From Dehalococcoidia bacterium (GTDB lineage: Bacteria; Chloroflexota; Dehalococcoidia; Plut-88900): 64,000 nucleotides of DNA. Every line of letters starts with the position of its first letter. The first letter of the stretch is position 1. Position numbers and translations under genes: made by a program. The stretch covers positions 195,030 to 259,029 of the forward strand of contig CBDFLQ010000005.1 in assembly GCA_965249275.1 (NCBI GenBank), in the 5' to 3' direction. Positions 9,582 through 60,510 of the stretch are shown one piece after another. The notes under the pieces were generated by a model. The model saw only the letters and a list, made by a program, of their open reading frames with translations, ran no database searches and was not told where the DNA came from.

Positions 9582-9622
9582 GTGACACCAACCCCTTGAC
9601 TCCATCAGACCATACGTACTAA
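9582..9622 (+). promoter_or_regulatory. conserved promoter-like module, copy D (degenerate -10)
   Basis: GTGACACCAACCCCTTGACTCCATCAGACCATACGTACTAA aligns with the modules at 36891 (+), 41172 (-) and 56009 (-). TTGACT at 9596-9601. Confidence 0.45.
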
Positions 9623-12890: not shown

Positions 12891-13304
12891 ATGAAGCTAA
12901 AGTACGCTGTCGTCTATGAACAAACGCCCAACAACTTCTGCGCCTACGCTCCTGACCTGCCCGGTTGCGTCAGTACGGGCAAGACTTGGGACGAAGTCCG
13001 AGAGATGATGCGGGAGGCAATCGGATTCCATTTAGAGGGAATGCTGGAACATGGCGAATCCGTCCCGGAACCGCGAATGTCCATTGAAGACGCTAAGGCC
13101 TATCACAACGACCCTCTCTCCAAGCAAGAGCAAAAGGCCCTTGCAGCCTACGGCGCTGATGCTCCCAACCTGTCAACCACTTTCGACATGGCAGAGATTG
13201 AGGTAAACCTCGCCCCTACCCCCATGTCATCCCGAGGCCCCGCGAGGGATCTAGGACTTGCCCCTTCACATCCCTCTCGACCATCCCCTCCCTACCCCTC
13301 CTGA
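12891..13304 (+). CDS. HicB-like (UPF0150) antitoxin-fold protein, orphan; C-terminal tail encoded by the REP-like repeat
   Basis: N-terminus MKLKYAVVYEQTPNNFCAYAPDLPGCVSTGKTWDEVREMMREAIGFHLEGMLEHGESVPEP is a typical HicB N-domain. The last ~27 codons read through the repeat at 13226-13262 (MSSRGPARDLGLA). Confidence 0.65.
   Translation: MKLKYAVVYEQTPNNFCAYAPDLPGCVSTGKTWDEVREMMREAIGFHLEGMLEHGESVPEPRMSIEDAKAYHNDPLSKQEQKALAAYGADAPNLSTTFDMAEIEVNLAPTPMSSRGPARDLGLAPSHPSRPSPPYPS
13226..13262 (+). repeat. 37-bp dispersed REP-like repeat, copy 4
   Basis: Exact GTCATCCCGAGGCCCCGCGAGGGATCTAGGACTTGCC. Confidence 0.9.
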
Positions 13305-24575: not shown

Positions 24576-25409
24576 CTAAGGCCGCCAAGCCTCGGGAATC
24601 GGGCCGCTGGGCGGGTATCCACCCTGGTCGTCGTGGGTCTCCTCTCCAACCAGCGGAGGATTGAACACGCTCATCAGGTAGAAATCGGTGTTCGCCTGTA
24701 TCTGGTGCCGGTCCTTGGGCCCGACTACGTATACCGTCCCCGGGGCAAGGTCCCACTCCTCCCCTGTCGTCTGGTCCTTCACAGAACCTTCGCCCTCCAG
24801 GATGTAGTTAGCCTCCACGTGGTTCTGGTACCAGAGGACAGTGCTCTTGCCCGCAGGGGCGCGGGGCGTAGATATTGTGAAGCCGCACCCGTCTTCCTGG
24901 GTGAGGTATCGATAGGCGTTCGCGCGGCCGTGGCCTATTACGATTACCGGGATGTCTTCCAGTCTTTTCACGTACATAGTTCGGCCCGCATCACCCTGCC
25001 AGGCAGGGGGGATATCGCCGGTTGGGGGGAAGGCGCCGTCCGCGTCGTGTCTCTCATTACCCATCACGGCGGGGCTGAAAATACTGACCAAGTGGACATC
25101 AGTCTTGGCCGTTAGACGATGTCTATCCTTAGGCCCGACCACGTACAGTCCTCCGTCCTCCAGGTCCCAACTATTGCCGTTGCTCAGGTCTGTCACCTCG
25201 ATGACCCCTTTGATGATCAGATTCCCCTCCACGTGGTTCTTGTAGTGAAGGTCGATGGAGAATCCCGCCGAGAAACGGACGTCGGCAAGGGAGAAGCCGC
25301 AACCGTCGGCCTTAGTCAGGAGACGCCTGGCATGCAACACCTTGTCGCCGTCGCGTCGCACCATCTCTTTGTCGGTCCCGGCCAGATCATCCAGCCTTCT
25401 TGCGAACAT
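24576..25409 (-). CDS. fused di-EctC (two ectoine-synthase-like cupin domains), tandem copy 5
   Basis: 277 aa. Both halves align to the EctC pattern (M.VR.L.DL.GTD...HYKNHVEG...GLYVVGPKDRH...VF.P...G.E.HD.DG.YPP). GGAGGTG lies upstream of the ATG. Confidence 0.8.
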   Translation of the reverse strand: MFARRLDDLAGTDKEMVRRDGDKVLHARRLLTKADGCGFSLADVRFSAGFSIDLHYKNHVEGNLIIKGVIEVTDLSNGNSWDLEDGGLYVVGPKDRHRLTAKTDVHLVSIFSPAVMGNERHDADGAFPPTGDIPPAWQGDAGRTMYVKRLEDIPVIVIGHGRANAYRYLTQEDGCGFTISTPRAPAGKSTVLWYQNHVEANYILEGEGSVKDQTTGEEWDLAPGTVYVVGPKDRHQIQANTDFYLMSVFNPPLVGEETHDDQGGYPPSGPIPEAWRP

Positions 25410-25514
25410 AATTGCACCTCCAAATGATGTGGCCGCTCATATGTCGACCCCCCAGCGGAGGATCTTGGGCAGTACGAGCGGCCACCTGGTCCGCGGAATT
25501 TTCTGCCTATCGCG

Positions 25515-26348
25515 CTACGGCCGCCACCCCTCGGGGATGGGGCCGGTGGGTGGGTAACCTCCCTGGTCGTCGTGGGTCTCGCCACCGTATATTGGCGGGT
25601 TGAAGACACTCATCAGGTAGAACCCGGTGCTGGACTTCAACTGGTGCCGGTCTTTAGGCCCGACCACGTACAGCGTGCCCGGGTACAGGTCCCACTTCTC
25701 GCCAGTTGTCTTGTCTTCGACGGAACCCTCGCCTTCGAATATGTAGTTGGCCTCGACGTGGTTCTGGTACCAGAGGACGATGCCATCGCCCGCAGGGGCG
25801 CGGGGCGTGGATATAGTGAACCCGCACTCGTCATCATGGGTGAGGTAGCGGTATGCCTTGGTGCGCCCGTGGCTTATGCCGACCACGCGGGTCTCCGAGA
25901 GCCTTCTTACGAACATGGTCCGGCCGGATTCTCCCTGCCAGGCGGAGGGAATCTCGCCGGTAGGCGGGTAGGACCCGTCGGCGTCATGCCTCTCGTTGCC
26001 CATTGTAGGGGGGCAAAACACGCTGACTATGTGCGCATCTGACTTGGCCGTACCCCGGTGCCGGTCCTTCGGGCCGACAACGTAAAGGTCCCCGGGGCCC
26101 AGGACCCAGCTGTCGCCGCTGGTCAAGTCAGTCAACTCCATTTCGCCGGTAACGATGAGGTTTCCCTCCACGTGATTCTTGTAATGCAGGTCTGTGGACA
26201 TGCCCGCAGAGATGCGGACGTCGGAAAAGGAGAAGCCACAGCCGTCAGCCTTGGTGAGCAGGCGCCTGCCCTGAAGTTTCTTGTCGCCGTCGACCCGCAG
26301 CATCTCCTTGTCCGTTCCGGCCAGGTCTTCCACTCTTCTAACGAACAT
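25515..26348 (-). CDS. fused di-EctC protein, tandem copy 4
   Basis: Start moved to MFVRRVEDLAG (ATG at 26348, GGAGGTG 6 nt upstream). The track ORF extension to 26447 overlaps the upstream gene. Confidence 0.8.
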   Translation of the reverse strand: MFVRRVEDLAGTDKEMLRVDGDKKLQGRRLLTKADGCGFSFSDVRISAGMSTDLHYKNHVEGNLIVTGEMELTDLTSGDSWVLGPGDLYVVGPKDRHRGTAKSDAHIVSVFCPPTMGNERHDADGSYPPTGEIPSAWQGESGRTMFVRRLSETRVVGISHGRTKAYRYLTHDDECGFTISTPRAPAGDGIVLWYQNHVEANYIFEGEGSVEDKTTGEKWDLYPGTLYVVGPKDRHQLKSSTGFYLMSVFNPPIYGGETHDDQGGYPPTGPIPEGWRP

Positions 26349-26370
26349 AACTACACCTCCGGGTTTGGTC

Positions 26371-27204
26371 CTACGGCCTCCACGCCTCTGGGATGGGACC
26401 GTTGGGCGGGTAATTGCCCTCTTCGTCGTGAGTTTCGCCCCCGACAAGGGGCGGGTTGAAGACGCTGAGCAAGTACGTATCGGTGAACTTCACGGTCTGG
26501 TGTCGGTCCTTGGGCCCGACGAAGTACATGGTGCCGGGGGCCAGGTCCCACTTCTCGCCGGTGGTCAGGTCTTCCACCGTCCCTTCGCCTTCCAGGATGT
26601 AGTTCGCCTCCACATGGTTCTTGTACCAGAGGACGATACCCTTGCCCGCAGGGGAGCGGGGTGTCGACATGGTGAAACCGCAACCGTCCTCCTGGGTGAG
26701 GTAGCGGTAGGCCGTGGACTTGCCGTGGCTGATACCGACTACCCTGGTGTCCTCCAGGCGCTTCACGAACATAGTCCGCCCATTCTCTCCCTGCCATTCG
26801 GGTGGGATTTCGCCGGTGGGCGGGTAGGAGCCGTCCGCGTCGTGCCGCTCGGTGCCGAGGGTCGCGGGGTTGAAAACGCTGACGATGTGGATGTCGCTCT
26901 TGGCGGTGATCCGGTGCCGGTCCTTGGGCCCGACCACATACAAACCTCCGCCGCTCACGTCCCAACTGTTGCCGTTGTTGAGGTCTTCCACCTTCAAGTC
27001 GCCACTGACCACCAGGTTCCCCTCGACGTGGTTCTTGTACCAGAGGTCGATTGACCATCCCTCCGATAGCCGAACGTCCGACATTGAGAAGCCGCAAGCG
27101 TCGGCCTTGGTGACCAGGCGCCTGGACTGCAATCTCTTGTTGCCGTCGACGCGCACCATCTCCTTGTCCGTGCCGGCGAGCTCCTCCAACGTTCTTACGA
27201 ACAT
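26371..27204 (-). CDS. fused di-EctC protein, tandem copy 3
   Basis: 277 aa, collinear with the other copies, with an SD-like GGAGGTG upstream. Confidence 0.8.
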   Translation of the reverse strand: MFVRTLEELAGTDKEMVRVDGNKRLQSRRLVTKADACGFSMSDVRLSEGWSIDLWYKNHVEGNLVVSGDLKVEDLNNGNSWDVSGGGLYVVGPKDRHRITAKSDIHIVSVFNPATLGTERHDADGSYPPTGEIPPEWQGENGRTMFVKRLEDTRVVGISHGKSTAYRYLTQEDGCGFTMSTPRSPAGKGIVLWYKNHVEANYILEGEGTVEDLTTGEKWDLAPGTMYFVGPKDRHQTVKFTDTYLLSVFNPPLVGGETHDEEGNYPPNGPIPEAWRP

Positions 27205-27295
27205 AACTTCACCTCCAGATCCTTTTCATATATACGGGTCTCGGGGGACAGTCTAACTTAAACCGAGAAAGCGGACACTCACCATTGCCGGCTCT

Positions 27296-28129
27296 CTACG
27301 GCCTCCAGGCCTCAGGGATGGGGCCGGTGGGGGGGTAGCCGCCCTGGTCATCGTGGGTCTCATTGCCGACGAGGGGCGGGTTGAATACGCTCACCAGCGC
27401 GAAGGCCGTGTTGAAGGACATCAAGTGCCTATCCTTCGGGCCAACGAAGTACATCGATCCGGGAGCCAGGGCCCACTTTTCCCCCGTGTTCAGGTCATCG
27501 ACGGAACCCTGGCCCTCCAGAACGTAGTTGGCCTCGACGTGGTTCTGGTACCACAACTCCTTCCCGTGGCCCTCCGAGGAACGGGGGTTAGAGATGGTGA
27601 AGCCGCAGCCGTCGGCCTGGGTGATGTAGCGGAAGGCTTGGGCACCCGTGCCCCGGACGCCGACGGCCTGGGCATCGGACTGTCTCTTCACGATCATGCT
27701 GCGGCCCGACTCACCAGCCCAGGCAGGTGGAACTTCACCGGTTGGGGGATAAGCGCCGTCTTCGTCAGGGGTCTCATCGCCTTTGAGCGCTGGGTTGAAA
27801 ACCGTGACGGCGTGCAATTCGGTCTTGGTCGAGACGTGATGCTTGTCCTTCGGCCCGACCACGTACAAGTCCCACGCCCCGACCTCCCAGCTCTTGCCGG
27901 TGGCGTACTCCGTAACCGTGGCACTGCCGGAGACTATGAGGCTTGCCTCCACATGGTTCTTGTAGTGACAGTCGATCTCCCAGCCAGCGGAGAGGGTGAC
28001 GTCGGCGAGGGAAAAGCCGGCGCCGTCATCCCTGGTTACTAATCGGACGGCCTTAAGCCACAGGTCTCCATCCTGCCATTTGACTTCCTTGTCGGTGCCT
28101 GCGAGATGGTCAAGGGTTCTTACAAACAT
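27296..28129 (-). CDS. fused di-EctC protein, tandem copy 2
   Basis: 277 aa, same two-cupin layout (HYKNHVEASLIV...; WYQNHVEANYVLEG...). Confidence 0.8.
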   Translation of the reverse strand: MFVRTLDHLAGTDKEVKWQDGDLWLKAVRLVTRDDGAGFSLADVTLSAGWEIDCHYKNHVEASLIVSGSATVTEYATGKSWEVGAWDLYVVGPKDKHHVSTKTELHAVTVFNPALKGDETPDEDGAYPPTGEVPPAWAGESGRSMIVKRQSDAQAVGVRGTGAQAFRYITQADGCGFTISNPRSSEGHGKELWYQNHVEANYVLEGQGSVDDLNTGEKWALAPGSMYFVGPKDRHLMSFNTAFALVSVFNPPLVGNETHDDQGGYPPTGPIPEAWRP

Positions 28130-28192
28130 GTCGGGTGTCCTCCGGCAGATATTTCGTATAAGGGGATAAAGACTAGTCCGGCCTCAACTCTC

Positions 28193-29035
28193 TCATGCGT
28201 ACCTAGGTATCCACGCCTCGGGGATGGGGCCGGTGGGCGGGTAGCCGCCCTGGTCATCGTGGGTCTCATTGCCGACGAGGGGCGGGTTGAATACGCTTAA
28301 CAGGTAGAAGCCGGTGGTGGTGTTAACCTGGTGCCTGTCCCTGGGGCCCACAAAGTACATGGACCCGGGGAACAGGTCCCATTTCTCGCCAGTGGTCAGG
28401 TCTTCGGCAGTCCCCTCGCCCTCAATTACATAGTTAGCTTCCACGTGGTTCTTGTAATGGAGCACGATGCCGTCTCCCGCAGGAGAGCGGGGGGTGGAAA
28501 TGGTGAAGCCGCATTCATCTGCCTGGGTGAGGTAGCGATAGGCCTTGGCAGCGCCATGGCTAACGCTGACTTCACGGGTGTCCGCAAGTCTCTTGAGGAA
28601 CATCGTCCCTCCCGAATCACCGGCCCATGCGGGTGGGACCTCGCCCGTCGGTGGGTATGCGCCGTCCTCATCGGGTTTTTCGTTGCCGATAAGCGCGGGG
28701 TTAAATACGGTGACGGCGCGCATCTCGGTTTTAGTTGACACGTGGTGCTTGTCCTTCGGCCCGACCACATACAAGTCCCCCGGGCCCACGTCCCAGCTTT
28801 TGCCGGTGGCATATTCCGTTAGCGTCGCGTTGCCGGAAATGATGAAGCTGGCTTCGATGTGGTGCTTGTAGTGGCAGTCTATCTCCCATCCTGCAGAAAG
28901 CCGGACGTCGGCGAGGGAGAAGCCGACAAGGTCGCTCTTGGTCACAAGCCGCGCGGCTCTGAGCCACAGGTCTCCGTCCTGCCATCTGCCTTCTTTGTCG
29001 GTACCTGCGAGTTGGTCAACGGTTCTTACGAACAT
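28193..29035 (-). CDS. fused di-EctC protein, tandem copy 1
   Basis: 280 aa, same layout, with a slightly extended C-terminus. Confidence 0.8.
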   Translation of the reverse strand: MFVRTVDQLAGTDKEGRWQDGDLWLRAARLVTKSDLVGFSLADVRLSAGWEIDCHYKHHIEASFIISGNATLTEYATGKSWDVGPGDLYVVGPKDKHHVSTKTEMRAVTVFNPALIGNEKPDEDGAYPPTGEVPPAWAGDSGGTMFLKRLADTREVSVSHGAAKAYRYLTQADECGFTISTPRSPAGDGIVLHYKNHVEANYVIEGEGTAEDLTTGEKWDLFPGSMYFVGPRDRHQVNTTTGFYLLSVFNPPLVGNETHDDQGGYPPTGPIPEAWIPRYA

Positions 29036-36865: not shown

Positions 36866-36890
36866 TCGGGCCGTAGGCTCGCCTCGGCGA

Positions 36891-36933
36891 GTGACATCTC
36901 CCCTTGACCCGATAAGAACATATGTTGTATATT
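36891..36933 (+). promoter_or_regulatory. conserved promoter module, copy C (TTGACC-18-TATATT)
   Basis: GTGACATCTCCCCTTGACCCGATAAGAACATATGTTGTATATT aligns, spacer included, with the modules upstream of the two large ncRNA candidates. Confidence 0.6.
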
Positions 36934-37021
36934 CCCACCCATGACCACCTCTCTCCAACTCACCTTTCGTCCTGCCCCTTCGGCCCCGCGAAAAACTTTC
37001 GCGAACCTTCTAGGCGTCATT

Positions 37022-37112
37022 CAATCAAAACAGCTACGAATTCAATCAACCTTCAATCAAGTTCAATCGACTTTCAATCAAGACCAATCATCCTCCAATC
37101 AATCGTCAATCA
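37022..37112 (+). repeat. array of eight direct (T)TCAATCA repeats at 10-11-bp spacing
   Basis: CAATCA (one CAATCG) starts at 37022, 37043, 37054, 37064, 37075, 37085, 37096 and 37107. The array sits between two convergent genes. Confidence 0.9.
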
Positions 37113-37126
37113 AAGGGACGGCTCGC

Positions 37127-38484: not shown

Positions 38485-38561
38485 TGGTACCCCCAACGGG
38501 ATTCGAACCCGTGATCTCCGCCTTGAAAGGGCGGTGTCCTTGGCCGCTAGACGATGGGGGC
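38485..38561 (-). tRNA. tRNA-Glu (anticodon UUC), CCA encoded
   Basis: The minus strand reads GCCCCCATCGTCTAGCGGCCAAGGACACCGCCCTTTCAAGGCGGAGATCACGGGTTCGAATCCCGTTGGGGGTACCA. It folds as a cloverleaf with anticodon loop CTTTCAA and T-loop TTCGAAT. Confidence 0.95.
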
Positions 38562-38916: not shown

Positions 38917-39354
38917 ATGCGTTTTGTTTATCCTGCACGACTGCGGCGTGCCTCCGCCGATGAGATAGTTGTCTCCTTCCGGGACCTCCCCGAGTGCCTG
39001 ACCTCCGGCAGGGACGAAGCTGAAGCCCTGTTCGAGGCTCAGGACGCCCTCGAAGAGGCTATCGCAGGCCGCATTGACGATGCCGAGTGTATCCCCATAC
39101 CGAGCCCCAGGAAGAACGGAGAACGGCTGGTAGCCGTACCCACCGCTACAGCCGCCAAAGCCGCCCTTGCCCTTGCGCTACGGGACAGCGGTCTCTCTCA
39201 TGCCGAGTTCGCCAAACTTTTCCGCACCGACGAGGAGTCCGTCCGTCGAATGCTCGACCCGCGGCACCGTACATCATCTGACCGAATCGGGAAAGCGCTC
39301 CATGCCCTGGGCCGACAAATCGCCCTAGAGCTTCGGGAACTGACTCCCGCCTAG
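38917..39354 (+). CDS. hicB: HicB-family antitoxin with C-terminal HTH-like region
   Basis: 145-aa ORF. YPARLRRASADEIVVSFRDLPECLTSGRDEAEALFEAQDALEEAI is a HicB N-domain. The C-terminal ...LSHAEFAKLFRTDEESVRRMLDP is Xre-like. Confidence 0.75.
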   Translation: MRFVYPARLRRASADEIVVSFRDLPECLTSGRDEAEALFEAQDALEEAIAGRIDDAECIPIPSPRKNGERLVAVPTATAAKAALALALRDSGLSHAEFAKLFRTDEESVRRMLDPRHRTSSDRIGKALHALGRQIALELRELTPA

Positions 39355-40382
39355 GGGAACAGGGCAAGGGATTCGAGTCCCATCTCCTCGGGATACCCGG
39401 CCATCACGTTCATGTTCTGGATTGCCTGACCTGCCGCGCCCTTGACCAGATTGTCGATGCAGCTGACCACCATCACCCGCCCCGTCCGAAGGTCGAGGGT
39501 TGGATATACCAGGCAATAGTTGTTACCCCAAGTCTGCTTGGTCTGAGGTGGCGCATCCACGACCCTGACAAAAGGCTCGCCCGCGTAGAATTCTCGATAT
39601 AGTCCTGTTAACTGCTCCCTGCCCTTCTCATCGACCGAAATGGAGGTGCCCGAAAGGGTGGCGTAGCAGGAGCTCAAGATTCCCCGGGTCATGGGTATCA
39701 GGTGTGGTAGGAAGGTGATCTGAGCATCGAGACTGGAGTCCAGCAGCGACACCTCCTGCACGATTTCCGGCAAGTGCCTGTGCCCGTCTATCCCGTAGGC
39801 CTTGACGTTCTCGTTCACCTCGGAAAAGTGGGTGTTCAGGCTGAGACCCCTCCCCGCCCCCGACACCCCGGACTTGCTGTCTATGATTAAGACTGGCTGG
39901 ACAAGCTTCTCCTTTATCAGCGGGGCAAGACCGAGAATCGCCGAGGTCGGGAAGCAGCCGGGGTTGGCAACCAACCGGGCTGACTCAATCTCCGATCGAT
40001 AGAGCTCGGTGAGACCGTAGACCGCCTCCTCCTGAAGCGCGGCGCTTGCGTGGGGGGTTTTGTACCACTCCTCGTACTCGGCAGGAGAGCGTAGACGGAA
40101 GTCGGCGCTAAGGTCCACGACCCGCGAGCGGTCCTCCACTAAGGGCACGACCCTTTCGCCACTGGACTTGTGGGGCAGGGCAGAGAAGACCATCTCCTCC
40201 CCATTTGGCTCGGCTTCGATAACCAGATCGATGTCGGAAAGATGGGGGAACACTTCTCCCAGCTTTTGTCCCTGGGCGCTGCGGCCCGTGATCGAGGTAA
40301 GCTCGATTTCGGGGTGGTTGTGAAGCAGCCGGGCCAGCTCGGCCCCCGCGTAGCCGGTTACGTTTAGAATTGCAGTCTTCAA
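39351..40382 (-). CDS. argC: N-acetyl-gamma-glutamyl-phosphate reductase
   Basis: 343-aa ORF with N-terminal NVTGYAGAEL Rossmann region and active-site NPGCFPTS. Confidence 0.9.
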   Translation of the reverse strand: MKTAILNVTGYAGAELARLLHNHPEIELTSITGRSAQGQKLGEVFPHLSDIDLVIEAEPNGEEMVFSALPHKSSGERVVPLVEDRSRVVDLSADFRLRSPAEYEEWYKTPHASAALQEEAVYGLTELYRSEIESARLVANPGCFPTSAILGLAPLIKEKLVQPVLIIDSKSGVSGAGRGLSLNTHFSEVNENVKAYGIDGHRHLPEIVQEVSLLDSSLDAQITFLPHLIPMTRGILSSCYATLSGTSISVDEKGREQLTGLYREFYAGEPFVRVVDAPPQTKQTWGNNYCLVYPTLDLRTGRVMVVSCIDNLVKGAAGQAIQNMNVMAGYPEEMGLESLALFP

Positions 40383-40491
40383 CTCAGCATCTCCCTAGGC
40401 TAAGGAAAGAGGCTACAGTCTGACAATATCCGGTGGGGAAATCAAGGCAGTGTACTCGTTCGGTAGATTAGTGACACACTGGCCTTTTCTT

Positions 40492-41123
40492 CAGTTGTGG
40501 GGGTTCGGTTTCAGTTCTGTCTGTTAGGTTTTGGGTTGGCGATGAAAGACGCTTGCTGGATTCGGCTCCCTATCTTTAGATAATGCGGGCTAGGAGGCGT
40601 CCCGGGAACGTGGGGACGGGGCTCCGCCGCCGCCTAGACCTGGAAGTATGGTCGGACATACGGGTCCGTCATCCGTCATAGGCTCCAATGAAGGTTGGCT
40701 GCGCTGTCCGCCGTAGGCGGATGCAGGAAGGGGAAAGTCCAGGGTCAGTTCCCCTCGCAGGAGTACGGGGTATCCAGTTCGCCGCCTGTATCCAGGAGCC
40801 GGGAGTGGCGGACAGTCCAGTTTTATTTGAGGAAGCGGACGGAGAGCCGAGCGGGCCTCGGCTACGGGCCGCCCCGTTCCGCTCCATGGGACGAGAGCTC
40901 CGAAAGGAGCCATAGGGACAATTACGGTCCAGGGCGTCTTCCATCGCCTGGGGTCAGGGAAGGGGGCGCGGGGCCCGGTAAGAGGAGATGGCGGCGTTTG
41001 CTTGAGCCGCGGGCCCCGTGTATGGGCCGTTGGGATGGGCTTGGACGTTGAGTCCTCGTTGTGGGCCGGGTGGGCTTCCCTGGGTGTTGGTTTCCTCCTT
41101 AAGGTGGGTGTCGGGTCTAGACT
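40492..41123 (-). ncRNA. candidate large structured ncRNA (unclassified), copy A
   Basis: ~630 nt with no credible ORF. Homologous in blocks to 55306-55959. Consensus promoter at 41130-41172. Long-range helix 40538-40552 with 40934-40948, plus several conserved hairpins. Ends are approximate. Confidence 0.6.
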
Positions 41124-41129
41124 GGTCCA

Positions 41130-41172
41130 ATAATAGAACATGTGTCTTATGAAGTCAAGGGGGTGATGTCAC
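41130..41172 (-). promoter_or_regulatory. conserved promoter module, copy A (TTGACT-17-TATTAT)
   Basis: The minus strand reads GTGACATCACCCCCTTGACTTCATAAGACACATGTTCTATTAT. Confidence 0.7.
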
Positions 41173-41309
41173 CCCTCTATGTGAACGGGATCAGCTACTA
41201 TCCTCACCATGACACCATCTTATGTGTCACCAATCTTTGTGAATGCCTTGACAGATATGGACTAGTGTTTTATTCTGCGCCGCAGGATTTTTTCTAACAA
41301 GGTTAGCAC

Positions 41310-43619
41310 ATGCCTCACGTCCTGCGAGCGTCCTACACGTTTGGAATCTTCGCCATCATCGGGATTGCCCTGTTCTTTGCAGTCGGAGTCTTTGCCGACG
41401 ACCATAATCCCGTGGACCTCTACCCTTCCGTTTCATGGGAGGGGGAGGAGATCACCCAGCCGGTTGTCGGGGAGTTCCTAACGGCAGCCCTGGTTGCCAA
41501 AGACCCGACCGGCATGTCCTGGCAGTGGGCCCGCTCCCAAGATGGAGAGGGCGGATGGGAGGACATTGAGGCTGCAACCTCTACGAAGTACATCCCCACC
41601 AATGATGACGTAGGGCGCTACCTCCGGGCAACAGTCTCCTATACCGATGGAGACGGCAACACCCAGAGTGCAGAGGCAAGCACCACCGATCAGGTGGTGC
41701 TAGAGAGGAGTGGTGTCCGCTGCCCATGGTGCGAACCTGAGCCGATATGGACGGCGACCTCCGTGCCCACTAATACACCCGTGCCCACTAATACACCCGT
41801 GCCCACCAGTACACCCGTGCCCACCAATACACCTTTACCCACCTCGAACCCTGACCCGTGTGACAGCACCAGGCACGCTCACGATTGCCACCCAGGGTAC
41901 GAGACGCCAACACCGCAGCCGACATCCACGGCCGACCCATGTGACAGTACCAGGCACGCTCACGATTGCCATCCAGGGTACGAGACGCCAACACCGCAGC
42001 CGACATCCACGGCCGACCCATGTGACAGCACCAGGCACGCCCACGATTGTCACCCGGACTATGAGACACCCACTCCCACACCGACTCCCACACCCACTCC
42101 CACACCGACTCCCACACCGACTCCCACGCCTACTCCCACGATCATGCCTTGTGCAAATTGCCCCACCCCGACCCCTATTCCGACCGCCACGCCAACGACA
42201 ACCCCATCTCCAACGCCTGACCCGGACGAGGAGGAAGAGACCGACGACAGCGAGCCGACGGGCGATTGCGCCGTGGCGATAGCCGCAAGTAGGTGGAGTG
42301 ACTATAACACCGCGGCCCTTGAGGATGAGTGTGGCGTCCTGCTTGCCATCAGTGATGCCTCCCGGGGGTCCTCCAGCCTCAACTGGACGGGCGACTCGTC
42401 CTTTGACAGGTGGACTGGGGTGTCGGTCAGTTTCGTGAGCGATGTGCCCCGGATAATTGGCATCTACCTGAGCAACCGGGGGCTGGAGGGACAACTGCCC
42501 TTCCAGTATGGCCAACTCCGTCAACTCACGACTCTGTATCTGGATGGCAACAACTACTCGGGGGCTGTCCCGTACGAGATCAGTTCCCTGCCCAATCTTC
42601 TCTTCCTTAACCTGGCGGGGAACGCCCTCACCGGTAACATACCGGTCCCAAGTTCACGGACCATCCAGCTCCTCATGCTTTCCAACAACCAGTTCAGCGG
42701 GTCGATCCCGGGATCCCTGGGTACGAAAGTGTCCCTGCGACTCCTCGACCTCTCGAACAACAACCTGACGGGGTCAATCCCCTCGGAGCTGACACAGTTG
42801 GCAGACACGTTGATGAGCCTGCGGATCGCCGGCAACAACTTCAGCGGGTGCGTGCCACATGCCATAGCTCTGGCCTTGGGACAGATTCGCAACCATGACC
42901 TTGGACATCTCAACATACAGGTCTGCTACGCAGACATCATCGAGTCCCCGGGGCACGCAGCAAACTGCTTTAGTCTCGTGTCTTGGTCGAGCGGCCAGGG
43001 GGTCAGTGAAACCGTAAGGCTGACCTCCCCCAGCGGGTACGACCACGAGTTCCACGTCGAATCGTATGGATCCAACGGCGTCCTCCTAAGCCGTCAATGC
43101 CTGCAAGCCCGATTCGTGGGGGTTTCGACACCCGGGGCCCAAAGGCTTGAGTGGGGCGGGACCGTACACTACGTCCCGCCGAGGTTCTTCACGCTGTCCC
43201 TTAGTGAAATAACGAACCTTAATGCGAGTAGTTTCCGTGCTTCTCTCAACAATGACCTGCCCGCAGGCGCTGACTCGCAGGTCCTGTCCGTCGATACCTC
43301 CTGTACCCAATGTAGAGGAGGCAATGCCCAGCCTACACTTGGTCACTGGGTTGACTTGAAGCACAATAGTTACATGATGGCAGTGTATGGGTACTATACG
43401 TTTACAGTAGGCAACGTTAGCCAGACATTGAGGGCGTCTCACGAGTGGTCGCTGGAACCGCCCCACACCATCCCGACCCACTGGGGCAACCCCCTGCTCA
43501 CTGCCGCAGAGCAAGCTATTGCGAACCAAGCGTGGGAGCTGGCTACCTACGCAATTCATCTGGGGTTTGATGCATTGGTCGCCGAATTGCAAGAGCAGTA
43601 TGAGGACTGGATTAATTAG
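41310..43619 (+). CDS. membrane-anchored/secreted protein with Cys/His-rich tandem repeats, PT linker and plant-type leucine-rich repeats
   Basis: 769-aa ORF. N-terminal TM segment, 3 x DPCDSTRHAHDCHPGYETPTPQPTSTA, (TP)n, then LRRs (LDLSNNNLTGSIPSELTQL etc.) and an unassigned C-terminal domain. Confidence 0.7.
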   Translation: MPHVLRASYTFGIFAIIGIALFFAVGVFADDHNPVDLYPSVSWEGEEITQPVVGEFLTAALVAKDPTGMSWQWARSQDGEGGWEDIEAATSTKYIPTNDDVGRYLRATVSYTDGDGNTQSAEASTTDQVVLERSGVRCPWCEPEPIWTATSVPTNTPVPTNTPVPTSTPVPTNTPLPTSNPDPCDSTRHAHDCHPGYETPTPQPTSTADPCDSTRHAHDCHPGYETPTPQPTSTADPCDSTRHAHDCHPDYETPTPTPTPTPTPTPTPTPTPTPTPTIMPCANCPTPTPIPTATPTTTPSPTPDPDEEEETDDSEPTGDCAVAIAASRWSDYNTAALEDECGVLLAISDASRGSSSLNWTGDSSFDRWTGVSVSFVSDVPRIIGIYLSNRGLEGQLPFQYGQLRQLTTLYLDGNNYSGAVPYEISSLPNLLFLNLAGNALTGNIPVPSSRTIQLLMLSNNQFSGSIPGSLGTKVSLRLLDLSNNNLTGSIPSELTQLADTLMSLRIAGNNFSGCVPHAIALALGQIRNHDLGHLNIQVCYADIIESPGHAANCFSLVSWSSGQGVSETVRLTSPSGYDHEFHVESYGSNGVLLSRQCLQARFVGVSTPGAQRLEWGGTVHYVPPRFFTLSLSEITNLNASSFRASLNNDLPAGADSQVLSVDTSCTQCRGGNAQPTLGHWVDLKHNSYMMAVYGYYTFTVGNVSQTLRASHEWSLEPPHTIPTHWGNPLLTAAEQAIANQAWELATYAIHLGFDALVAELQEQYEDWIN
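41853..42080 (+). repeat. three tandem 81-bp coding repeats
   Basis: Units start at 41853, 41934 and 42015, nearly identical at the DNA level. Followed by an ACNCCN (Thr-Pro) microrepeat to ~42140. Confidence 0.9.
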
Positions 43620-43631
43620 AGAGAGGAACCC

Positions 43632-44309
43632 ATGAAGAAAAAAGCCCTTCTGCTTATGGCGGCATTAGCCATGGTGGTGGTAATGTCCTGCTCTACGCGT
43701 TTGGGGGCCCAGGATCTACGGGTCCAGGCCTGTCAAAGCGCCGAGGCGCTTACGGACTTCGATGTGGAGTCAACGGTAACGAATTACGAGGACGGGAAGG
43801 TGGTCATGACAGCCACGGCTGTTCTCCAGGTCGATGCTCCTAACTGGCACAGAGTGGACTCCGACGAAGAGGGGGTTAAGCGAGGCGAGTTCCTGTTGTA
43901 TGAGGGCGACCTGTACTGGCAACAAGGAGATGAGGGGTGGACAAAAGTCGGAGATGAGTCCACCCAGGAAGGCCAGGACGAACTGCGCTTCCCCATCGGC
44001 CCTACCTCGATCTGCCCAACGCTGACTGCCTTCAGCTATGACGCTGACGAGAAACTGGGCGAGGAAACGAGCAAGCGGTTCTCCGCCCCATCACTAACCG
44101 GGCAGGAGTGGGGAGATGACGCCCCGACGAACTCCCCTTACCAGGCGAACTTTATCATCTGGATAGATTTCGATGGGTACATAGTCAAGTCGCAGTGGGA
44201 CTTTATTTACCCTTCCACCATGTGGGATGAGCCAACACCGGACCGCTACATCAGGGTTACCAGTGTGCATTCAGGGCACGGTGAACCCAACATCCTGCCG
44301 ACGCCATAA
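43632..44309 (+). CDS. hypothetical lipoprotein
   Basis: 225-aa ORF with signal peptide and lipobox MVVVMSCS. No family recognised. Confidence 0.5.
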   Translation: MKKKALLLMAALAMVVVMSCSTRLGAQDLRVQACQSAEALTDFDVESTVTNYEDGKVVMTATAVLQVDAPNWHRVDSDEEGVKRGEFLLYEGDLYWQQGDEGWTKVGDESTQEGQDELRFPIGPTSICPTLTAFSYDADEKLGEETSKRFSAPSLTGQEWGDDAPTNSPYQANFIIWIDFDGYIVKSQWDFIYPSTMWDEPTPDRYIRVTSVHSGHGEPNILPTP

Positions 44310-44311
44310 AG

Positions 44312-44602
44312 ATGGACAGGAAGTACATCTGGCCGTTGGTCCTGTTCGTAGCCCTACCTGCCGTAACGGCCTTGGCATTCCAAGTAATGGAGGTGGCCTT
44401 CTTTAGATCGCTGCTCAGAGATTTGCTGGGGATTCCACGATACCTTTACATTGAGTGGGTCTTTGCGCTCATCTTCATTGCCGTCTACCTGCGTCTGATC
44501 CTGAGGCCGCCCAGCCCGATATTCCGTCCACTTGCGGGCATTGGGCTGACCCTGCTGATAATCCGCACGGCATGGGCGGACACCCGGCCGGCCACACGAT
44601 AG
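44312..44602 (+). CDS. small hypothetical membrane protein
   Basis: 96-aa ORF with three hydrophobic segments, starting 3 nt after the upstream stop. Confidence 0.4.
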   Translation: MDRKYIWPLVLFVALPAVTALAFQVMEVAFFRSLLRDLLGIPRYLYIEWVFALIFIAVYLRLILRPPSPIFRPLAGIGLTLLIIRTAWADTRPATR

Positions 44603-44939
44603 ACTCCCGGACCCCAGTGTGGACACCGGCGCGGTCGGGGTGATCGGACTATCGTTGGAGAAGCGGGCTCCGCTCCGGGTTGCCCTAAGCGCCCTGGAAG
44701 ACCGAATCGCCGAGAACCTCTCTAGGCCGAACGGCCAATAAATGTCCGCGCCCGCCCTCCGTGCCACGACACTTCGGGCAGGGTCTTCGCGATGAAATTT
44801 CCCAGGGGGATATTGATAGTAGAATGCGACAGGCAAAGCTTTAGATTTGGGAAGGGAGGGCGCGAATATTTAACAGTTGGTTATGAAGTAACGAGGAGTC
44901 GTTAGCACTACACTGGCCTTTTGGCCGGACTATGAGGTA

Positions 44940-46391
44940 ATGAAATTGATTGATGGATCGAATCGGACTTTCCGGGGCGCCAAGAAACAAAGGATGGCCC
45001 TGGGTCTCCTAAGTATATTTCTAGTACTGGTCATGGTGGCCGCGGCCTGCGGAGAGGCGGCTACGCCAACCCCGGCGCCCCCAACGTCGGCCCCCGCTAC
45101 GGCGGTTCCCGCTACCGCAGTGCCTCCCACCTCGGCGCCCGACACTTCGGAGCCCGACACTTCGGAACCGGCCACCGCAATGCCCGAGCCCGCAGCGACA
45201 ACTGCGCCTGCCCCGGCAGCGACTGCCACGTCTCAGCCACCCACTGCCGTTCCCGAGCCGGAAATAACCCTCAGACCTATTTCTGAATGGACTCCGGAGA
45301 ACCCAGCGACCCTGGAGGAGATAGAAGCTGAATTAGAGAAGCGCAGAGGTGAGACCTTCACCTTCGTATCTGCAGGCGGTGCATACCAGGCGGCCGAAAG
45401 GCAGGCATGGCTGGACCCGTTGCGGGAGAAGTTCGGCCTTGTGATAATCGAGGATAGTCCAGAGCCGAGCGTAGCCCAAACGCGATCTAATGCGGAGACC
45501 GGCAACATCGTGTATGACATAATACCCATGGGCGGCGCCAACGCTGCTGCCCTTCTCAAAACCGATAGCTTGGGACAGTACGATCGGGCTATCGTGGATG
45601 ACAGAGATCTGCTGGACATCTTTACGGCACAGGGACCGTACCTTGCTGGCGGAGCGATCACCTGGTCTACAGTTCTTGCCTATAACACGGATGTCTACCC
45701 TGGGGATACCGGACCCAAGAGTTGGGCCGACTTCTTTGATCTGGAGCGATTCCCCGGCCGTCGCGCTCTGCGGAATGCGGTCGCCTACGGGGGACAGTTG
45801 CAGATCCAGAGACTGGCCCGAGAACCCGAGTTGCTGAGCGGCCAAGAAGGAAGGCGGTCGGTCGCTACACCTACTCAGGAGGAGATGATAGAAGACTTCG
45901 CATGGTTTGACGAATGGACCGATGAGGCAGGAAGCGACATCGTTTACTGGTCATTGGGCTCTGAGTGCCCCGAGTTTCTAATAGCCGGTGAAGTTGACAT
46001 GTGCTCCGCCTGGAACGGCAGAATATTCGATGCCGCCCAGACGGGGGCGCCCATAGCGGTCTGCTGGGAGTGCGGATTCATGACGGGGATTTCCGCCTAT
46101 ACAGTAGCGAAGGGCCTCAAAGAGCAGGACCCGGAGCGGTACGAGCTAGTCAACTTAGTTATCGCCTGGATCACGTTCCCCGAAAACAACGTGAGAATAT
46201 CCCAGTTCATCACCTACGGTCCCGGTAACAGGAAATCATTCGCATTCATGGATGACCCGGCCTACGATCTAGTCCGGGACGAGCTGCCCACCTCGGGTTC
46301 AAACATCTCGTACGCCATACTATGGGATGAGACCTGGTTCGCAGCCAACTCGGACTGGGCCAGCGAACAGTTCGAACAAGCGATCCAATAG
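44940..46391 (+). CDS. ABC-transporter periplasmic substrate-binding lipoprotein (PotD/polyamine-type family), orphan
   Basis: 483-aa ORF with signal/lipobox LVMVAAAC, a Pro/Ala/Thr linker and an SBP_bac_1/8-like body. No permease or ATPase gene is adjacent. Confidence 0.7.
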   Translation: MKLIDGSNRTFRGAKKQRMALGLLSIFLVLVMVAAACGEAATPTPAPPTSAPATAVPATAVPPTSAPDTSEPDTSEPATAMPEPAATTAPAPAATATSQPPTAVPEPEITLRPISEWTPENPATLEEIEAELEKRRGETFTFVSAGGAYQAAERQAWLDPLREKFGLVIIEDSPEPSVAQTRSNAETGNIVYDIIPMGGANAAALLKTDSLGQYDRAIVDDRDLLDIFTAQGPYLAGGAITWSTVLAYNTDVYPGDTGPKSWADFFDLERFPGRRALRNAVAYGGQLQIQRLAREPELLSGQEGRRSVATPTQEEMIEDFAWFDEWTDEAGSDIVYWSLGSECPEFLIAGEVDMCSAWNGRIFDAAQTGAPIAVCWECGFMTGISAYTVAKGLKEQDPERYELVNLVIAWITFPENNVRISQFITYGPGNRKSFAFMDDPAYDLVRDELPTSGSNISYAILWDETWFAANSDWASEQFEQAIQ

Positions 46392-55086: not shown

Positions 55087-55245
55087 GTACTCCCCTAAGT
55101 GGGCCGAGAATCTTATACACTCAAGGCCGCCGGCGCGTCCCTCCGTTGCTTAGAATCCTCCAACGGTACATTGTAGGGCGCAAACCGGCGCGAAGTGTAC
55201 ATTACCGGTATTTTAGTGTCAAGATTTGGGGTAGTGGGCGGGTGG

Positions 55246-55284
55246 GGACACCGCCCCAGATTCCTCGCAGGGCATCGGAATGAC
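55246..55284 (-). repeat. divergent relative of the REP-like repeat
   Basis: The minus strand reads GTCATTCCGATGCCCTGCGAGGAATCTGGGGCGGTGTCC, with the same GTCAT..CCGA...CGAGGRATCT.GG frame as the 37-bp repeat. Confidence 0.5.
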
Positions 55285-55305
55285 AGGGGGAGGGGGTGGG
55301 TTATT

Positions 55306-55959
55306 CAGTTGTGTGGTTTCGGGTTCCGTTCTATTTGTTGGGGTGGTTGGCGATGGAAGACGCTGGCTGGACGCTGCCCCCGTTCCTGTGCTTCGGGTGC
55401 TCCGACGCCCTGGAGCAAGGCCGCCGGCCCGCTTTTGCCGCTGCTGCGGCCTGTGGCCCTGTATACGCTGGACGTGGGCAGGGACCATCAGGGCCACCAA
55501 GTCCGAGCCCGACTCCGGGGGGTTGGCTGCACCGCTATAGGGCGGCAAGGAGGCCCGTCCAGCGTCCGATGCCGGGCCTCTTGCAGGCGTAATGTGTCCA
55601 AGTTTGCCGGTGCGACCCGGAGCGCGTAGACCACCGGCTCCCGGCTTGATTAAGCGGACGGTGTACCGAGAGGGCCTCGGCGCCGGGCCTATCCGACCGC
55701 TATTCCGCTTGAAGGAGCGGCATCTCCGTTAGGAGCCTCACATGGAACGATAGCGAACCAGGGCGTCTTTCCATCGCCTGGGGGGTAGGGAAGGGTGCAC
55801 GGGACCCGTGGGGATGAGGAGATGGCGGCGTTTGCTTGAGCCGAGGCCGGGCAATGCCGACCTACGGGATGGGCTTGGACGTTGAGTCCTCGGGTGGGTC
55901 GGGTGGGCTTCCCTGGGTTTTTGGTTCCTCCTTGAGATAGTTAGGTTGGTGTTCGAACG
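55306..55959 (-). ncRNA. candidate large structured ncRNA (unclassified), copy B
   Basis: ~650 nt with no credible ORF. Shares end blocks and internal islands with copy A. Promoter at 55966-56009. Long-range helix 55349-55363 with 55763-55778. Ends are approximate. Confidence 0.6.
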
Positions 55960-55965
55960 GTGGGG

Positions 55966-56009
55966 ATAATAGCACGGATGTTCATAACGGGTCAAGGGGT
56001 TGATGTCAC
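55966..56009 (-). promoter_or_regulatory. conserved promoter module, copy B (TTGACC-18-TATTAT)
   Basis: The minus strand reads GTGACATCAACCCCTTGACCCGTTATGAACATCCGTGCTATTAT. Confidence 0.7.
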
Positions 56010-56092
56010 ACTTTGAGGGGTGGGGAATGTAGAATACTGGGAGTAAGCGCGCGGCCGGTCTGGTGGCGTGCCGCCAGACCGAAGGAGATAAA

Positions 56093-58638: not shown

Positions 58639-60510
58639 CTAGCGGATAGGGCTGGGGATGTTGCCACAGGAAACCGGCGGGTCACTCACCTGATCCGTGC
58701 CGCTCACGACTACAACGTAGGACGGGCTAAACTGGAAGAACTGAGCGGGTGTGTCCACCATACTTATGGACTTGCCGTCAACGATGTCAAAAAGGAGATA
58801 CTCGAACTGGCCGCTGGGCTCCCCACCTTCGGAGGGGCAGCTGCCCCGGCGGATGGCAGCGGCGAAGGGCCCGGGGCCCGCATCATGGAGGGTGACCGTG
58901 ACCCTGGTCCACCAGTGGATCTGGACAAGGTGCAGGGCACCGTTCAGGCCCCCCTCTCCCACGGCGACCATGTCCGCGGAGCTTGCCGTTTTAGCTATTC
59001 TCTCGTCGCCCGTCCATTCCTCGGGGAGGGGCGGTGCGGCGCACAGTTGCAGGCCGGCGGCCTGAAAGTCTCTATCCGGGATATCCGCCAAATCATGGGG
59101 GATGCATCCCGTAAAGCGATTACCGCTGAGGGACAGCGACTGCATATGGGAGAGGCGGCCCAGTTCCGACGGTATCTCTCCGCTTAAGTGGTTATTGTCA
59201 AGGTTTAATCCAGCGAGGTAGGCAAGACTACCCAATTGCGGTGGTATCTCTCCGCTCAAATCATTCTCGCTGAGGTTCAGCCACTCCAGGTTGGAGAGGC
59301 GGCCCAGTTCCGACGGTATCTCTCCGCTCAACTCGTTCCCGTTGAAGGACAGCCACCTCAGGAGGGAGAGGCGACCCAGTTCCGACGGTATCTCCCCGCT
59401 CAACTCGTTCCCGAAGAGGGAGAGCGATTGCAGTTTGGAGAGAGTCCCCAGTTCCGGTGGTATTTCTCCACTCAACTCGTTCCTGCTAAGGTGCAGCCGC
59501 TCCAGGCGGGAGAGACTGCCCAGTTCCGGCGGTATTTCTCCACTCAACTCGTTCCTGTGTAGATCCAGCCGCTCCAGGCGGGAGAGGCGACCCAGTTCCG
59601 ACGGTATCTCTCCACTCAACTTGTTCCCGTGGAGGTACAGCGATTGCAGATTGGAGGGGCCTCCCAGTTCCGGTGGTATCCCTCCGCTCAACTTGTTCGT
59701 GTGGAGGCCCAGCCCTTGCAGATTGGAGAGGCCACCGAGTTCAGACGGTATTTCTCCGCTCAACTCGTTCTCGCTGAGGGACAGCGATTGTAGATTGGAG
59801 AGAGCCCCCAGTTCCGGCGGTATTTCTCCGCTCAACTCGTTCTCGCTGAGGGACAGCACCCTCAGTAGGGAGAGGCGGCCCAGTTCCGACGGTATCTCCC
59901 CACTCAACTTGTTCGTGTGGAGGCCCAGCGATTGCAGATTAGGGAGACCCCCGAGTTCCGACGGTATCTCCCCGCTCAAATGGTTCCTGCTGAGGTCCAG
60001 CAATTGCAGATTGGAAAGACTGCCTAGCTCCAGTGGTATTTTCCCTCTCATCCCATTAAGAAAAAAGTCCATCTCAGTGATGCGGCCGCTTTCATCGGTG
60101 GTGATTCCAGACCATTGGCCGATAGGCGCATCGGTCAGCCAGTTATTGTTATCGCGCCAGTTCTGGCCGTTAGTGGCGTGATAGAGGGCAACTAGGGCCT
60201 CCCTGTCGGTGGCTGGGGATTGGGCCGGGACAGGGATGGGTGTTGGGGTCGGTGTAGGCGTGGGAGTTGAAGCAGGTGTCGGGACTGGCGTAGACGTGGG
60301 AGCAGGGGCAAGCGTTGGGGTAGGTGTAGGCATGGGAGTTGGGGCAGGCGTTGGGGCAGGCGTTGGGGTTGACGTAGGCATGGGAGCAGGGGTAAGCGTT
60401 GGGGACGGTGACAGTGTGGGCGTCGGGGTTGACGCATCGGAACAGGCGGAGACCAATATCAAAAGGAGTATTGCGGTTGCACTGAGCGGTCCTAAGATCG
60501 GCGCTGGCAT
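58639..60510 (-). CDS. secreted leucine-rich-repeat protein (about 14 plant-type 24-residue LRRs)
   Basis: Signal peptide, PT linker, cap [37 protein letters not shown], then repeats of the form [24 protein letters not shown]. C-terminal ~150-aa domain unassigned. Confidence 0.8.

Follow-up and report, generated by a model that had tools for sequence, protein, structure and literature searches.

A non-coding unit between argC and a repeat-rich gene

The window analysed here, a 64,000-nucleotide (nt) stretch of contig CBDFLQ010000005.1 from a Dehalococcoidia bacterium, contains a gap of 927 bp between argC (39351-40382, minus strand) and a repeat-rich gene that starts at 41310. This gap holds copy A, a non-coding unit of 743 bp on the minus strand (41193..40451), which is the subject of this analysis together with the dispersed family of elements to which it belongs. 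A sequence-only reading of the same DNA had proposed a large structured RNA of ~630 nt with a second, homologous locus; the homologous non-coding locus stood, and the unit proved to be longer than that reading had estimated. The parts of copy A are as follows.

41194..41198, minus: left 5-bp target-site duplication, GTAGC, decayed or replaced here (2/5 identical to the right copy)
41163..41193, minus: left terminal inverted repeat (IRL), TGATCCCGTTCACATAGAGGGGTGACATCAC, with ~20/31 positions matching the right end in reverse complement
41130..41158, minus: own sigma-70-type promoter, -35 TTGACT at 41158-41153, 17-nt spacer, -10 TATTAT at 41135-41130, matching the consensus at 10/12 positions
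41092..41100, minus: Shine-Dalgarno-like (SD-like) AAGGAGGAA without a downstream start codon, nearly invariant across 93 distinct sequences
40941..41104, minus: conserved 5' core domain, a match to covariance model R1 (146.7 bits, E = 1.7e-31)
41082-41075 with 40962-40955, minus: core helix P1, with compensatory changes
within 41074-41062 with 40978-40967, minus: core helices P1a/P1b, with compensatory changes
41057-41043, minus: P2 hairpin, weak pair support
41042-41030, minus: conserved junction AAGCCCAUCCCAA
41029-41010, minus: P3 hairpin, with compensatory changes
41009-40992, minus: P4, weak pair support
40993-40982, minus: anti-SD-like CGCCAUCUCCUC
40934..40948, minus: long-range closing helix, 5' strand GGCGAUGGAAGACGC (sequence reading and RNAfold)
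40553..40933, minus: variable middle domain of type A, including nested hairpins, ~90% or more conserved among paralogues and species
40538..40552, minus: closing helix, 3' strand GCGUCUUUCAUCGCC (sequence reading and RNAfold)
40485..40537, minus: CA-rich, G- and U-poor tail AACCCAAAACCUAACAGACAGAACUGAAACCGAACCCCCACAACUGAAG, conserved across copies
40451..40481, minus: right terminal inverted repeat (IRR), ...CAGTGTGTCACTAATCTACCGAACGAGTACA (comparison of ends among copies)
40446..40450, minus: right 5-bp target-site duplication, CTGCC
40440..40445, minus: host -35-like hexamer TTGATT, adjoining the duplication, with argC downstream (start codon 40382)

The near-consensus minus-strand promoter that had been noticed in the sequence, TTGACT-17-TATTAT at 41158-41130, is present as listed, and 2 promoter-like sites were found where 0.4 were expected. 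From promoter spacing alone, we place the putative transcription start near 41123. The IRL, which includes a GTGACA box, lies upstream of the -35 hexamer, and homology between copies ceases upstream of its outer end. The 15 nt that follow the SD-like AAGGAGGAA contain no U, so that AUG, GUG, and UUG are all impossible there.

The helices proposed from the sequence were recovered as well. The long-range helix joining 40948-40934 (GGCGAUGGAAGACGC) to 40552-40538 (GCGUCUUUCAUCGCC) can be read in the sequence with one G-U pair, and RNAfold predicts it in both copies found in the window. RNAfold likewise predicts in both copies the second helix, CAGGGAAG (41082-41075) with CUUCCCUG (40962-40955), which covaries across the family, and the nested hairpins GGAGCGGA...UCCGCUUCC around GCCGAGG...CUCGGC are kept in copy A and copy B. 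The hairpin and TTGATTTCC that had been suggested as a terminator turned out to be the right inverted repeat followed by the 5-bp duplication and the -35 of the argC promoter. This downstream host promoter has, as read from the sequence, a weak -10.

The second locus had been recognised correctly: blastn aligns 55290-56010 with copy A in two segments, one of 179 nt at the 5' end (82.7%) and one of 74 nt at the 3' end (81%). A global alignment of the two copies gives 78% identity, with long invariant blocks between variable hairpins. Copy B is organised as follows.

55287..56010, minus: copy B, with a type-B middle domain (covariance model R1, 167 bits)
55995-55990 and 55971-55966, minus: promoter, -35 and -10
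55937-55771, minus: core
55778-55763 with 55363-55349, minus: closing helix
near 55301, minus: end of the tail

The left repeat of copy B is degenerate and its right inverted repeat is absent. In place of the latter, the 3' flank carries a small hairpin repeat, TGTCATYCCGAKGCCCYGCGAGGRATCTRGG, which occurs in the window at 1333-1414, 7089-7170, 9455-9536, and 13225-13306, at ~55245-55285 beside copy B, and at many related loci. Seven strain variants of copy B, 91-93% identical, were found in one ENA soil assembly, and were used to find the invariant blocks for the pattern scan described below.

That the gap hides an unrecognised protein-coding gene, for example one for a Pro/Arg-rich small protein, has next to no probability in our estimation. 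Long stop-free runs do occur on both strands, as expected in G+C-rich DNA (sense-strand median 122 codons), and copy A contains an open reading frame (ORF) of 183 aa; the start of this ORF falls within the -10 box, and copy B has no equivalent, so that the earlier judgement of it as implausible by its start site held. A gene finder using a codon-usage model trained on long ORFs of the window and of related loci called nothing in 40383-41309 or 55087-56062, in agreement with the earlier description of the gap as lacking a believable ORF, and called no gene inside 53 of 56 full copies. ORF translations from the loci gave no match in a Pfam search, no start codon follows the SD-like motif, and most indel runs in the 5' domain (798/917; 87%) have lengths that cannot be divided by 3. 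A protein family conserved in frame thus found support neither from the gene finder nor from indel phase or the Pfam search.

Distribution and conserved fold of the family

Scanning one representative genome per species with the pattern AGGACTCAACGNNNNAGCCCATCC, we found at least 93 family loci; the 93 listed all lie in 8 metagenome-assembled genomes (MAGs) labelled Dehalococcoidia. At least 27 copies are dispersed over the single chromosome OZ240215.1 (3.4 Mb), and some soil Dehalococcoidia have dozens per genome. An independent two-block pattern run over a metagenome collection returned 83 matches, 77 by chance and 6 real, and all 6 real matches come from the single project LXNJ01. The strings that mark the element ends are TGATCCCGTTCA... 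and ...GAACGAGTACA. No similar DNA was found in phage and plasmid collections, and a literature search by topic and by sequence strings found nothing relevant to the family. We conclude that the family is abundant within a narrow clade and apparently undescribed.

Comparison with Rfam 15 (4227 families) pointed the same way as the earlier impression of an RNA unlike any known large non-coding RNA (ncRNA), as neither copy A nor copy B matched any family, RNase P, tmRNA, 6S, SRP, and group I/II introns included. At gathering thresholds, the only match in the whole window was a tRNA at 38488-38561, and 18 related loci matched only in neighbouring RNase P, SRP, 5S, and tRNA genes. At E<=10, the copy A locus gave only a chance match to mir-207 (19.5 bits against a threshold of 88 bits). 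Membership in a known RNA family, among them OLE, ROOL, GOLLD, raiA, HEARO, and the riboswitches, was therefore rejected for want of any Rfam match at gathering score.

The order of parts is the same in every copy. A GTGACA box is followed by CCCC and by TTGAC-N17-TAnnnT, and the invariant AAGGAGGAA lies ~30 nt after the promoter. In the core of ~165 nt, a long interrupted helix (P1/P1a/P1b) encloses the hairpins P2, P3, and P4, along with two invariant single strands, AGCCCAUCCCAA and CGCCAUCUCCUC. The closing helix consists of GGCGAUGG and an extension, which pair with a second extension and CCAUCGCC, and it encloses a middle domain that across the family spans 200-545 nt and falls into at least 10 unrelated sequence types. 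The conserved tail of ~60 nt follows, with a composition over 49 tails of 42% A, 39% C, 12% G, and 7% U. Hairpin units of the form CCGCC-UNN-GGNGG occur in variable number in the P4 loop and after the tail. RNAalifold also proposes an AGGAG:CUCCU pairing that would form a pseudoknot with P1; since both strands are invariant, no covariation signal is possible for it.

We built covariance model R1 from 93 distinct 5' domains and realigned 104 matches with it; the covariation figures given here are for 103 distinct sequences and 29 pairs in this alignment, compared with 500 shuffles. Standard pairs fill 85.4% of cells as against 77.5% in shuffles, double-sided changes occur in 20 of the 29 pairs (14.6±1.1 in shuffles), and compensatory cells number 207 (56.6±6.1 in shuffles, none of the 500 reaching 207). 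The covariation score is 0.244, and falls to 0.071 or less when partners are slid by 1-3 columns. The signal lies in P1, P1a, P1b, and P3. The extension of the closing helix switches as a unit by sub-family (GACGC/GCGUC, GGUCC/GGACC, or GAAGCCC/GGGCNUC), and its strands are predicted to pair at -17.0 kcal/mol with their cognate partners versus -8.4 kcal/mol with those of another class. Alignment of some hundred homologues, which had been suggested as a check of the fold, thus yielded compensatory changes that support the core helices and the closing helix, and by this generic mark of structured RNA the predicted helices appear to be kept by compensatory substitution.

Other pairings were considered and set aside. 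A local hairpin CCAGGCG...CGCCCUGG in place of the long-range helix was rejected, as the long-range pairing persists in copies of the GGUCC type, from which the 3' half of that hairpin is missing. For a CUAG/CUAG hairpin in the 5' domain, no consistent covariation was seen, and P2 as GAGG/CCUC was likewise dropped, with weak support.

Covariation does not identify the strand, and our assignment therefore rests on the conserved promoter and on folding. The -35 and -10 hexamers are conserved in ~94 copies while the spacer sequences differ, and for copy A the predicted fold is more stable than in dinucleotide shuffles on the minus strand (z = -3.87) but not on the plus strand (z = +0.54). On these grounds the minus-strand assignment already made from the sequence is upheld. 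The argument first offered for it, a G-U pair on one strand where the other would have an A-C mismatch, fails family-wide, with 164 G-U and 178 A-C cells; these counts show no asymmetry and were dropped as strand evidence.

The lack of strand bias is a point in favour of a purely DNA-level selfish repeat with no functional RNA, whose helices would be DNA hairpins for transposition or chance complementarity in G+C-rich sequence. The family also shows repeat-like homogenisation and module shuffling, in genomes rich in other small intergenic repeats. We nevertheless consider such a repeat very unlikely: it does not account for a correctly spaced promoter conserved at a fixed place in ~94 copies, nor for nested long-range helices over 200-545 nt that keep compensatory changes far from the ends, and only the promoter-sense strand folds better than shuffles. 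Moreover, the RNA region is intact in copies with degenerate ends.

Element ends and placement beside host promoters

In the sub-family of copy A, homology between elements runs from TGATCCCGTTCACATAGAGGGGTGACATCA to ...GTGTGTCACTAATCTACCGAACGAGTACA. These ends are imperfect inverted repeats of ~31 bp, ~20/31 identical, with TG...CA tips, and the elements with intact ends measure 743-872 bp. The five bases before TG repeat the five bases after CA: in 13 loci the two agree at 52 of 65 positions, as compared with a mean of 22.2 and a maximum of 39 of 65 in 5000 permutations. Examples of the left and right duplications (related loci carry the prefix L) are as follows.

L099: TCAGC / TCAGC
L009: TTTCG / TTTCG
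L079: CACCG / CACCG
L030: CTCCC / CTCCC
L008: CCCTA / ACCTA
L076, orthologous to copy A: CAGCC / CTGCC (4/5)
L190, orthologous to copy A: CAGAC / CTGCC (3/5)

The position of the right end is equally regular. Among the 21 elements with an IRR, 14 have a TTGACA-like hexamer (at least 4/6) at exactly +6 from the right tip, while other offsets from -3 to +8 have such a hexamer in 0-1 of the 21; in 13 of the 21, a -10-like hexamer follows that -35 after 16-18 bp. One host promoter downstream of an element drives a tRNA gene. Comparison of the ends thus shows the right tip of the element sitting 5 bp upstream of a predicted host -35, with element and host promoter in the same orientation.

These features invite comparison with known classes of mobile DNA. 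Elements of the copy-A sub-family have terminal inverted repeats, target-site duplications, no transposase, and many dispersed copies, as do miniature inverted-repeat transposable elements (MITEs) and mobile insertion cassettes (MICs). They also share with Tn7-like elements a duplication of 5 bp and insertion in a specific orientation next to a recognised site, here the -35 hexamer at +6. Our best reading is that the family consists of protein-less mobile DNA elements of ~0.74-0.87 kb with intact ends, akin to a mobile insertion cassette or an oversized MITE. We estimate a probability of about 0.7 that copy A is a member of such a non-autonomous, promoter-targeting transposable element family, carrying a new large structured RNA.

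Several observations weigh against this interpretation. Inverted repeats and duplications can be demonstrated for one end sub-family only (13 loci, some of them orthologous), and the duplication of copy A itself is only 2/5 identical. Copy B and many other copies have a truncated left repeat, no right repeat, and no demonstrable duplications. No autonomous partner with the same ends was found among the window and the related loci examined, and no precise empty orthologous site was recovered via argC homologues. At L032 (~6198-6090, minus strand), a solo left inverted repeat with CCCC lies 4-5 bp upstream of the groES-groEL promoter TTGCGA-N17-TAAAAT; this could be the scar of a deletion or recombination between internal and host promoters, or a promoter-upstream regulatory module. 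With respect to the RNA, P2 and P4 as drawn are weakly supported by covariation, the alignment was fitted to the R1 model, which favours the structure, and the sequences in it are related. The G-U and A-C counts favour neither strand, and in principle single-stranded DNA, or the opposite strand, could adopt these helices as well. Finally, the transcription of the element and the ends and stability of its RNA are predicted from sequence.

The groES-groEL promoter at L032 is followed by a CIRCE operator, TTAGCACTC-N9-GAGTGCTAA. Relatives with argC at 68-75% identity have an HhH-GPD gene directly upstream of argC and no element, and their neighbourhood also differs; a relative at 97% has an element at the same junction as copy A.

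Some of these observations would fit a stand-alone, non-mobile ncRNA gene family, amplified by ordinary duplication and recombination, in which the 31-bp repeats are regulatory modules for a GTGACA-recognising factor before both promoters. In its favour are the GTGACA-box promoters that occur without the RNA core at window positions 9582 and 36891, the solo left repeat before the groESL promoter, the many copies without recognisable ends, and the persistence of orthologous copies across species. We hold this to be rather unlikely, as it leaves the 5-bp flanking repeats (well above the permutation maximum), the TG...CA tips, and the exact +6 position of the -35 unexplained, and the RNA core follows 58 of 61 GTGACA boxes among the loci examined.

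Other mobile origins were rejected. Retrotransposition of the transcript, in the manner of a short interspersed element (SINE), is contradicted by the copying of the promoter and left repeat, which lie upstream of the putative start, and an IS200/IS605-like element does not fit the duplications and TG...CA tips. Two interruptions of elements were considered as master copies and dismissed. In L064 (3076-5661), the element is split by a 2.6-kb insertion of the IS21 family that encodes a 527-aa IstA-like and a 265-aa IstB-like protein. Three elements (L052, 3355-4640; L041; L021) contain on their 5' side, at the same position, an insertion sequence (IS) of ~1.3 kb with different ends, which encodes a 423-aa rve-domain transposase with weak IS481/IS3 similarity and whose own 5-bp flanks abut the internal -35 of the element. 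As this unrelated rve-type IS has the same geometry, mobile elements of more than one kind appear to be drawn to the site 5 bp upstream of a -35, which hints that the promoter itself, as sequence or as bound polymerase, is recognised.

Genomic context, proposed mechanism, and meaning

To describe the surroundings of the elements, contexts were made non-redundant by clustering flanking proteins, with orthologues and strains merged. The downstream gene is co-oriented with the element in 46 of 60 distinct contexts and convergent in the other 14; on the upstream side, 66 of 88 have a divergent gene. Placement against a promoter and in the same direction explains this orientation bias of the downstream genes. 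We found no shared function among the latter, which include two class I aminoacyl-tRNA synthetases (a GlnRS/GluRS-type enzyme and LeuRS), SdhA/FrdA, a NuoE-like protein, FolD, RibF, Lgt, MoaA, AdoMet decarboxylase, MetE-like proteins, and ArgC. Stable RNA genes are also found nearby: an isolated 5S rRNA gene ~300 nt downstream of an element with no obvious promoter between them (L015, 2418-2535), a tRNA downstream of an element and behind its own promoter (L033, 3431-3502), RNase P RNA ~1 kb downstream (L072, 5056-5402), and an SRP RNA gene divergently upstream (L018, 3695-3961). The diversity of downstream genes, the intervening promoter in most copies, and the convergent contexts led us to reject a riboswitch or other cis-regulatory leader.

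A broader version of this idea, partly compatible with a mobile element, is a cis-acting expression cassette in which promoter, SD-like stabiliser, and structured leader are read into the next gene as a portable 5' leader or insulator. The frequent co-orientation of the downstream gene speaks for it, as do the lack of an intrinsic terminator with a U-tract after the RNA and the weak or absent intervening promoter before argC and before the isolated 5S rRNA gene. We regard the cassette as doubtful, though deserving of some weight, since a separate, well-formed host promoter follows most copies, 14 of 60 contexts are convergent with the next gene, the downstream genes have no common function and include stable RNA genes, and a covarying fold of 600 nt would be superfluous for a stabiliser or insulator.

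The history of individual copies is mixed. Thirteen contexts are common to two to four species, which indicates that some copies are old. At orthologous sites, divergence of the elements equals or exceeds that of the gene next to them (88% versus 92% identity, and 91% versus 95%), and at some such sites the type was swapped, with elements 66% identical beside a gene 94% identical. Within genomes as well as between them, paralogues of the same type differ very little; together with the type swaps, this is what one sees in a repeat family whose copies recombine. In four elements, all on OY764147.1 (L025, L059, L072, L085), part of the 5' core is duplicated in tandem within the element, and the scan pattern matches twice, 85-87 nt apart.

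Returning to a mobile family that carries an RNA, its workings may be sketched as follows. A DDE-type (retroviral-integrase-like) transposase encoded elsewhere would make 5-bp staggered cuts beside -35 boxes and so spread the elements. In every copy the internal promoter lies just inside the left repeat and faces a non-coding region of ~550-800 nt; from it, a stable RNA of ~600-700 nt would be transcribed as the selected cargo. The SD-like AAGGAGGAA probably binds the 16S 3' end or the 30S subunit, as a 5' stabiliser of the STAB-SD type, or alternatively may pair with the internal CCAUCUCCUC. Rho is probably loaded at the C-rich, G-poor tail and would stop transcription before the host promoter is reached, although the CA-rich tail might instead be a binding platform. 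Copy B and similar copies look like immobilised derivatives that keep promoter and RNA intact. Since the RNA is intact in such copies, whose ends are dead, and at sites that several species have in common, its action is probably in trans and not confined to the mobility of its own copy. What it would do there is a matter for speculation: that it is a cofactor helping a trans-encoded integrase-type transposase to find promoters, possibly polymerase-bound ones, or else a new large ribozyme or ribosome-binding RNA that is being disseminated, strikes us as improbable.

The elements resemble several known systems and differ from each. Like MITEs and MICs, they lack a transposase gene, have terminal inverted repeats flanked by short target-site duplications, and occur in many copies dispersed over intergenic regions, and like Correia, BOX, RUP, and ERIC elements, which can carry promoters, they adjoin genes. 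They are far larger than typical MITEs (743-872 bp), and they differ further in their complete conserved promoter, their covarying multi-helix region of ~600 nt, their fixed position 5 bp upstream of a -35, and their fixed orientation. TG...CA tips and 5-bp duplications recall Tn7-like and Tn5053-like elements and the DDE transposons IS3 and IS481, and orientation-specific insertion beside a recognised site recalls Tn7, for which that site is attTn7; here, in contrast, the element has no transposition genes and its target is a class of sites, promoters, instead of one locus.

On the RNA side, the size of ~600 nt, the ornate conserved secondary structure, and the invariant junction nucleotides are reminiscent of OLE, ROOL, GOLLD, and raiA, and an RNA encoded inside a mobile element is known from HEARO/omega RNA (IscB/TnpB) and IS110 bridge RNA. 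Unlike these, the RNA here has no Rfam match and no partner protein gene beside it, and the copies of the family number dozens per genome, differ in an exchangeable middle domain, and are confined to a narrow Dehalococcoidia clade. In STAB-SD 5' mRNA stabilisers, as in Bacillus thuringiensis cryIIIA, a strong Shine-Dalgarno sequence lies near the 5' end with no start codon after it. The SD-like sequence of the family shares this arrangement but heads a non-coding RNA and may pair with the internal CCAUCUCCUC, and its role here is predicted from the sequence alone. As far as our searches show, the combination of a complete promoter, a large covarying RNA, and base-pair-precise homing to promoters is not described.

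The neighbourhood of the elements contains further repeats and promoters. Two GTGACA-box promoters in the window lack the RNA core. The first, at 36880-37120 (plus strand), consists of GTGACATCTCCCCTTGACC-N17-TATATT preceded by a TCGCCTCGGCGA hairpin, and faces ~200 nt of non-coding sequence ahead of a convergent gene; this sequence contains eight or nine repeats resembling UCAAUCAA and could be a small multi-motif RNA. The other, at 9560-10043 (plus strand), is the third promoter of this kind, GTGACACCAACCCCTTGAC-N17-TACTAAC, with a shortened sequence resembling the left repeat upstream, and faces ~420 nt of C-rich non-coding sequence ahead of a 78-aa ORF at 10044. That sequence is unrelated to the family core and, among the loci examined, is repeated elsewhere only in a small hairpin repeat. 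Two further repeat families are often found 40-100 nt upstream of elements (L012, L023, L033, L051, L065, L080, L093, and others): one is a long palindrome, CCCCCTCTCCCTTAA..TAAGGGAGAGGGGG, followed by AAGGGGGTGAGGGTTCCCC, and the second is GGCCGCTCACCCTGAGC..GTCGAAGGGTCGAGCGGGG. The intergenic regions of these genomes look like mosaics of repeat modules.

Beside copy A lies a variable region. Compared with L101, L103-L105, and L190, the window has ~5 kb of extra genes (41310-46391) where relatives have the HhH-GPD gene directly upstream of argC, including one for a 769-aa protein with proline/threonine-rich tandem repeats at 41743-42149; the 97% relative has only a gene for a solute-binding protein there. 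Elsewhere, the window contains five tandem paralogous genes of ~278 aa each at 24576-29035 (repeat families D2-D6) and an array of 72-nt tandem repeats at 59048-60400, inside the gene at 58639-60510.

If the interpretation as a mobile, RNA-carrying family is true, the RNA would be a new class among the few large ornate bacterial RNAs, one amplified to dozens of promoter-equipped copies per genome, and the element would be a transposable one whose insertion is aimed, precisely to the base pair and in fixed orientation, at the upstream edge of promoters. Tn7 and the yeast Ty elements follow a 'safe-haven' insertion strategy; to our knowledge, safe-haven homing to bacterial promoters is not described. 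Were the homing also assisted by the RNA, the system would parallel, in bacteria, the promoter homing of Ty3, or would be an RNA-assisted form of targeting distinct from CRISPR-associated transposons (CAST), omega-RNA, and bridge-RNA. The narrow distribution of the family limits its generality. Within that clade, the system bears on how mobile DNA chooses promoters and why an element would carry a folded RNA of 600 nt, and on how repeat modules make up the intergenic regions of uncultured Chloroflexota.

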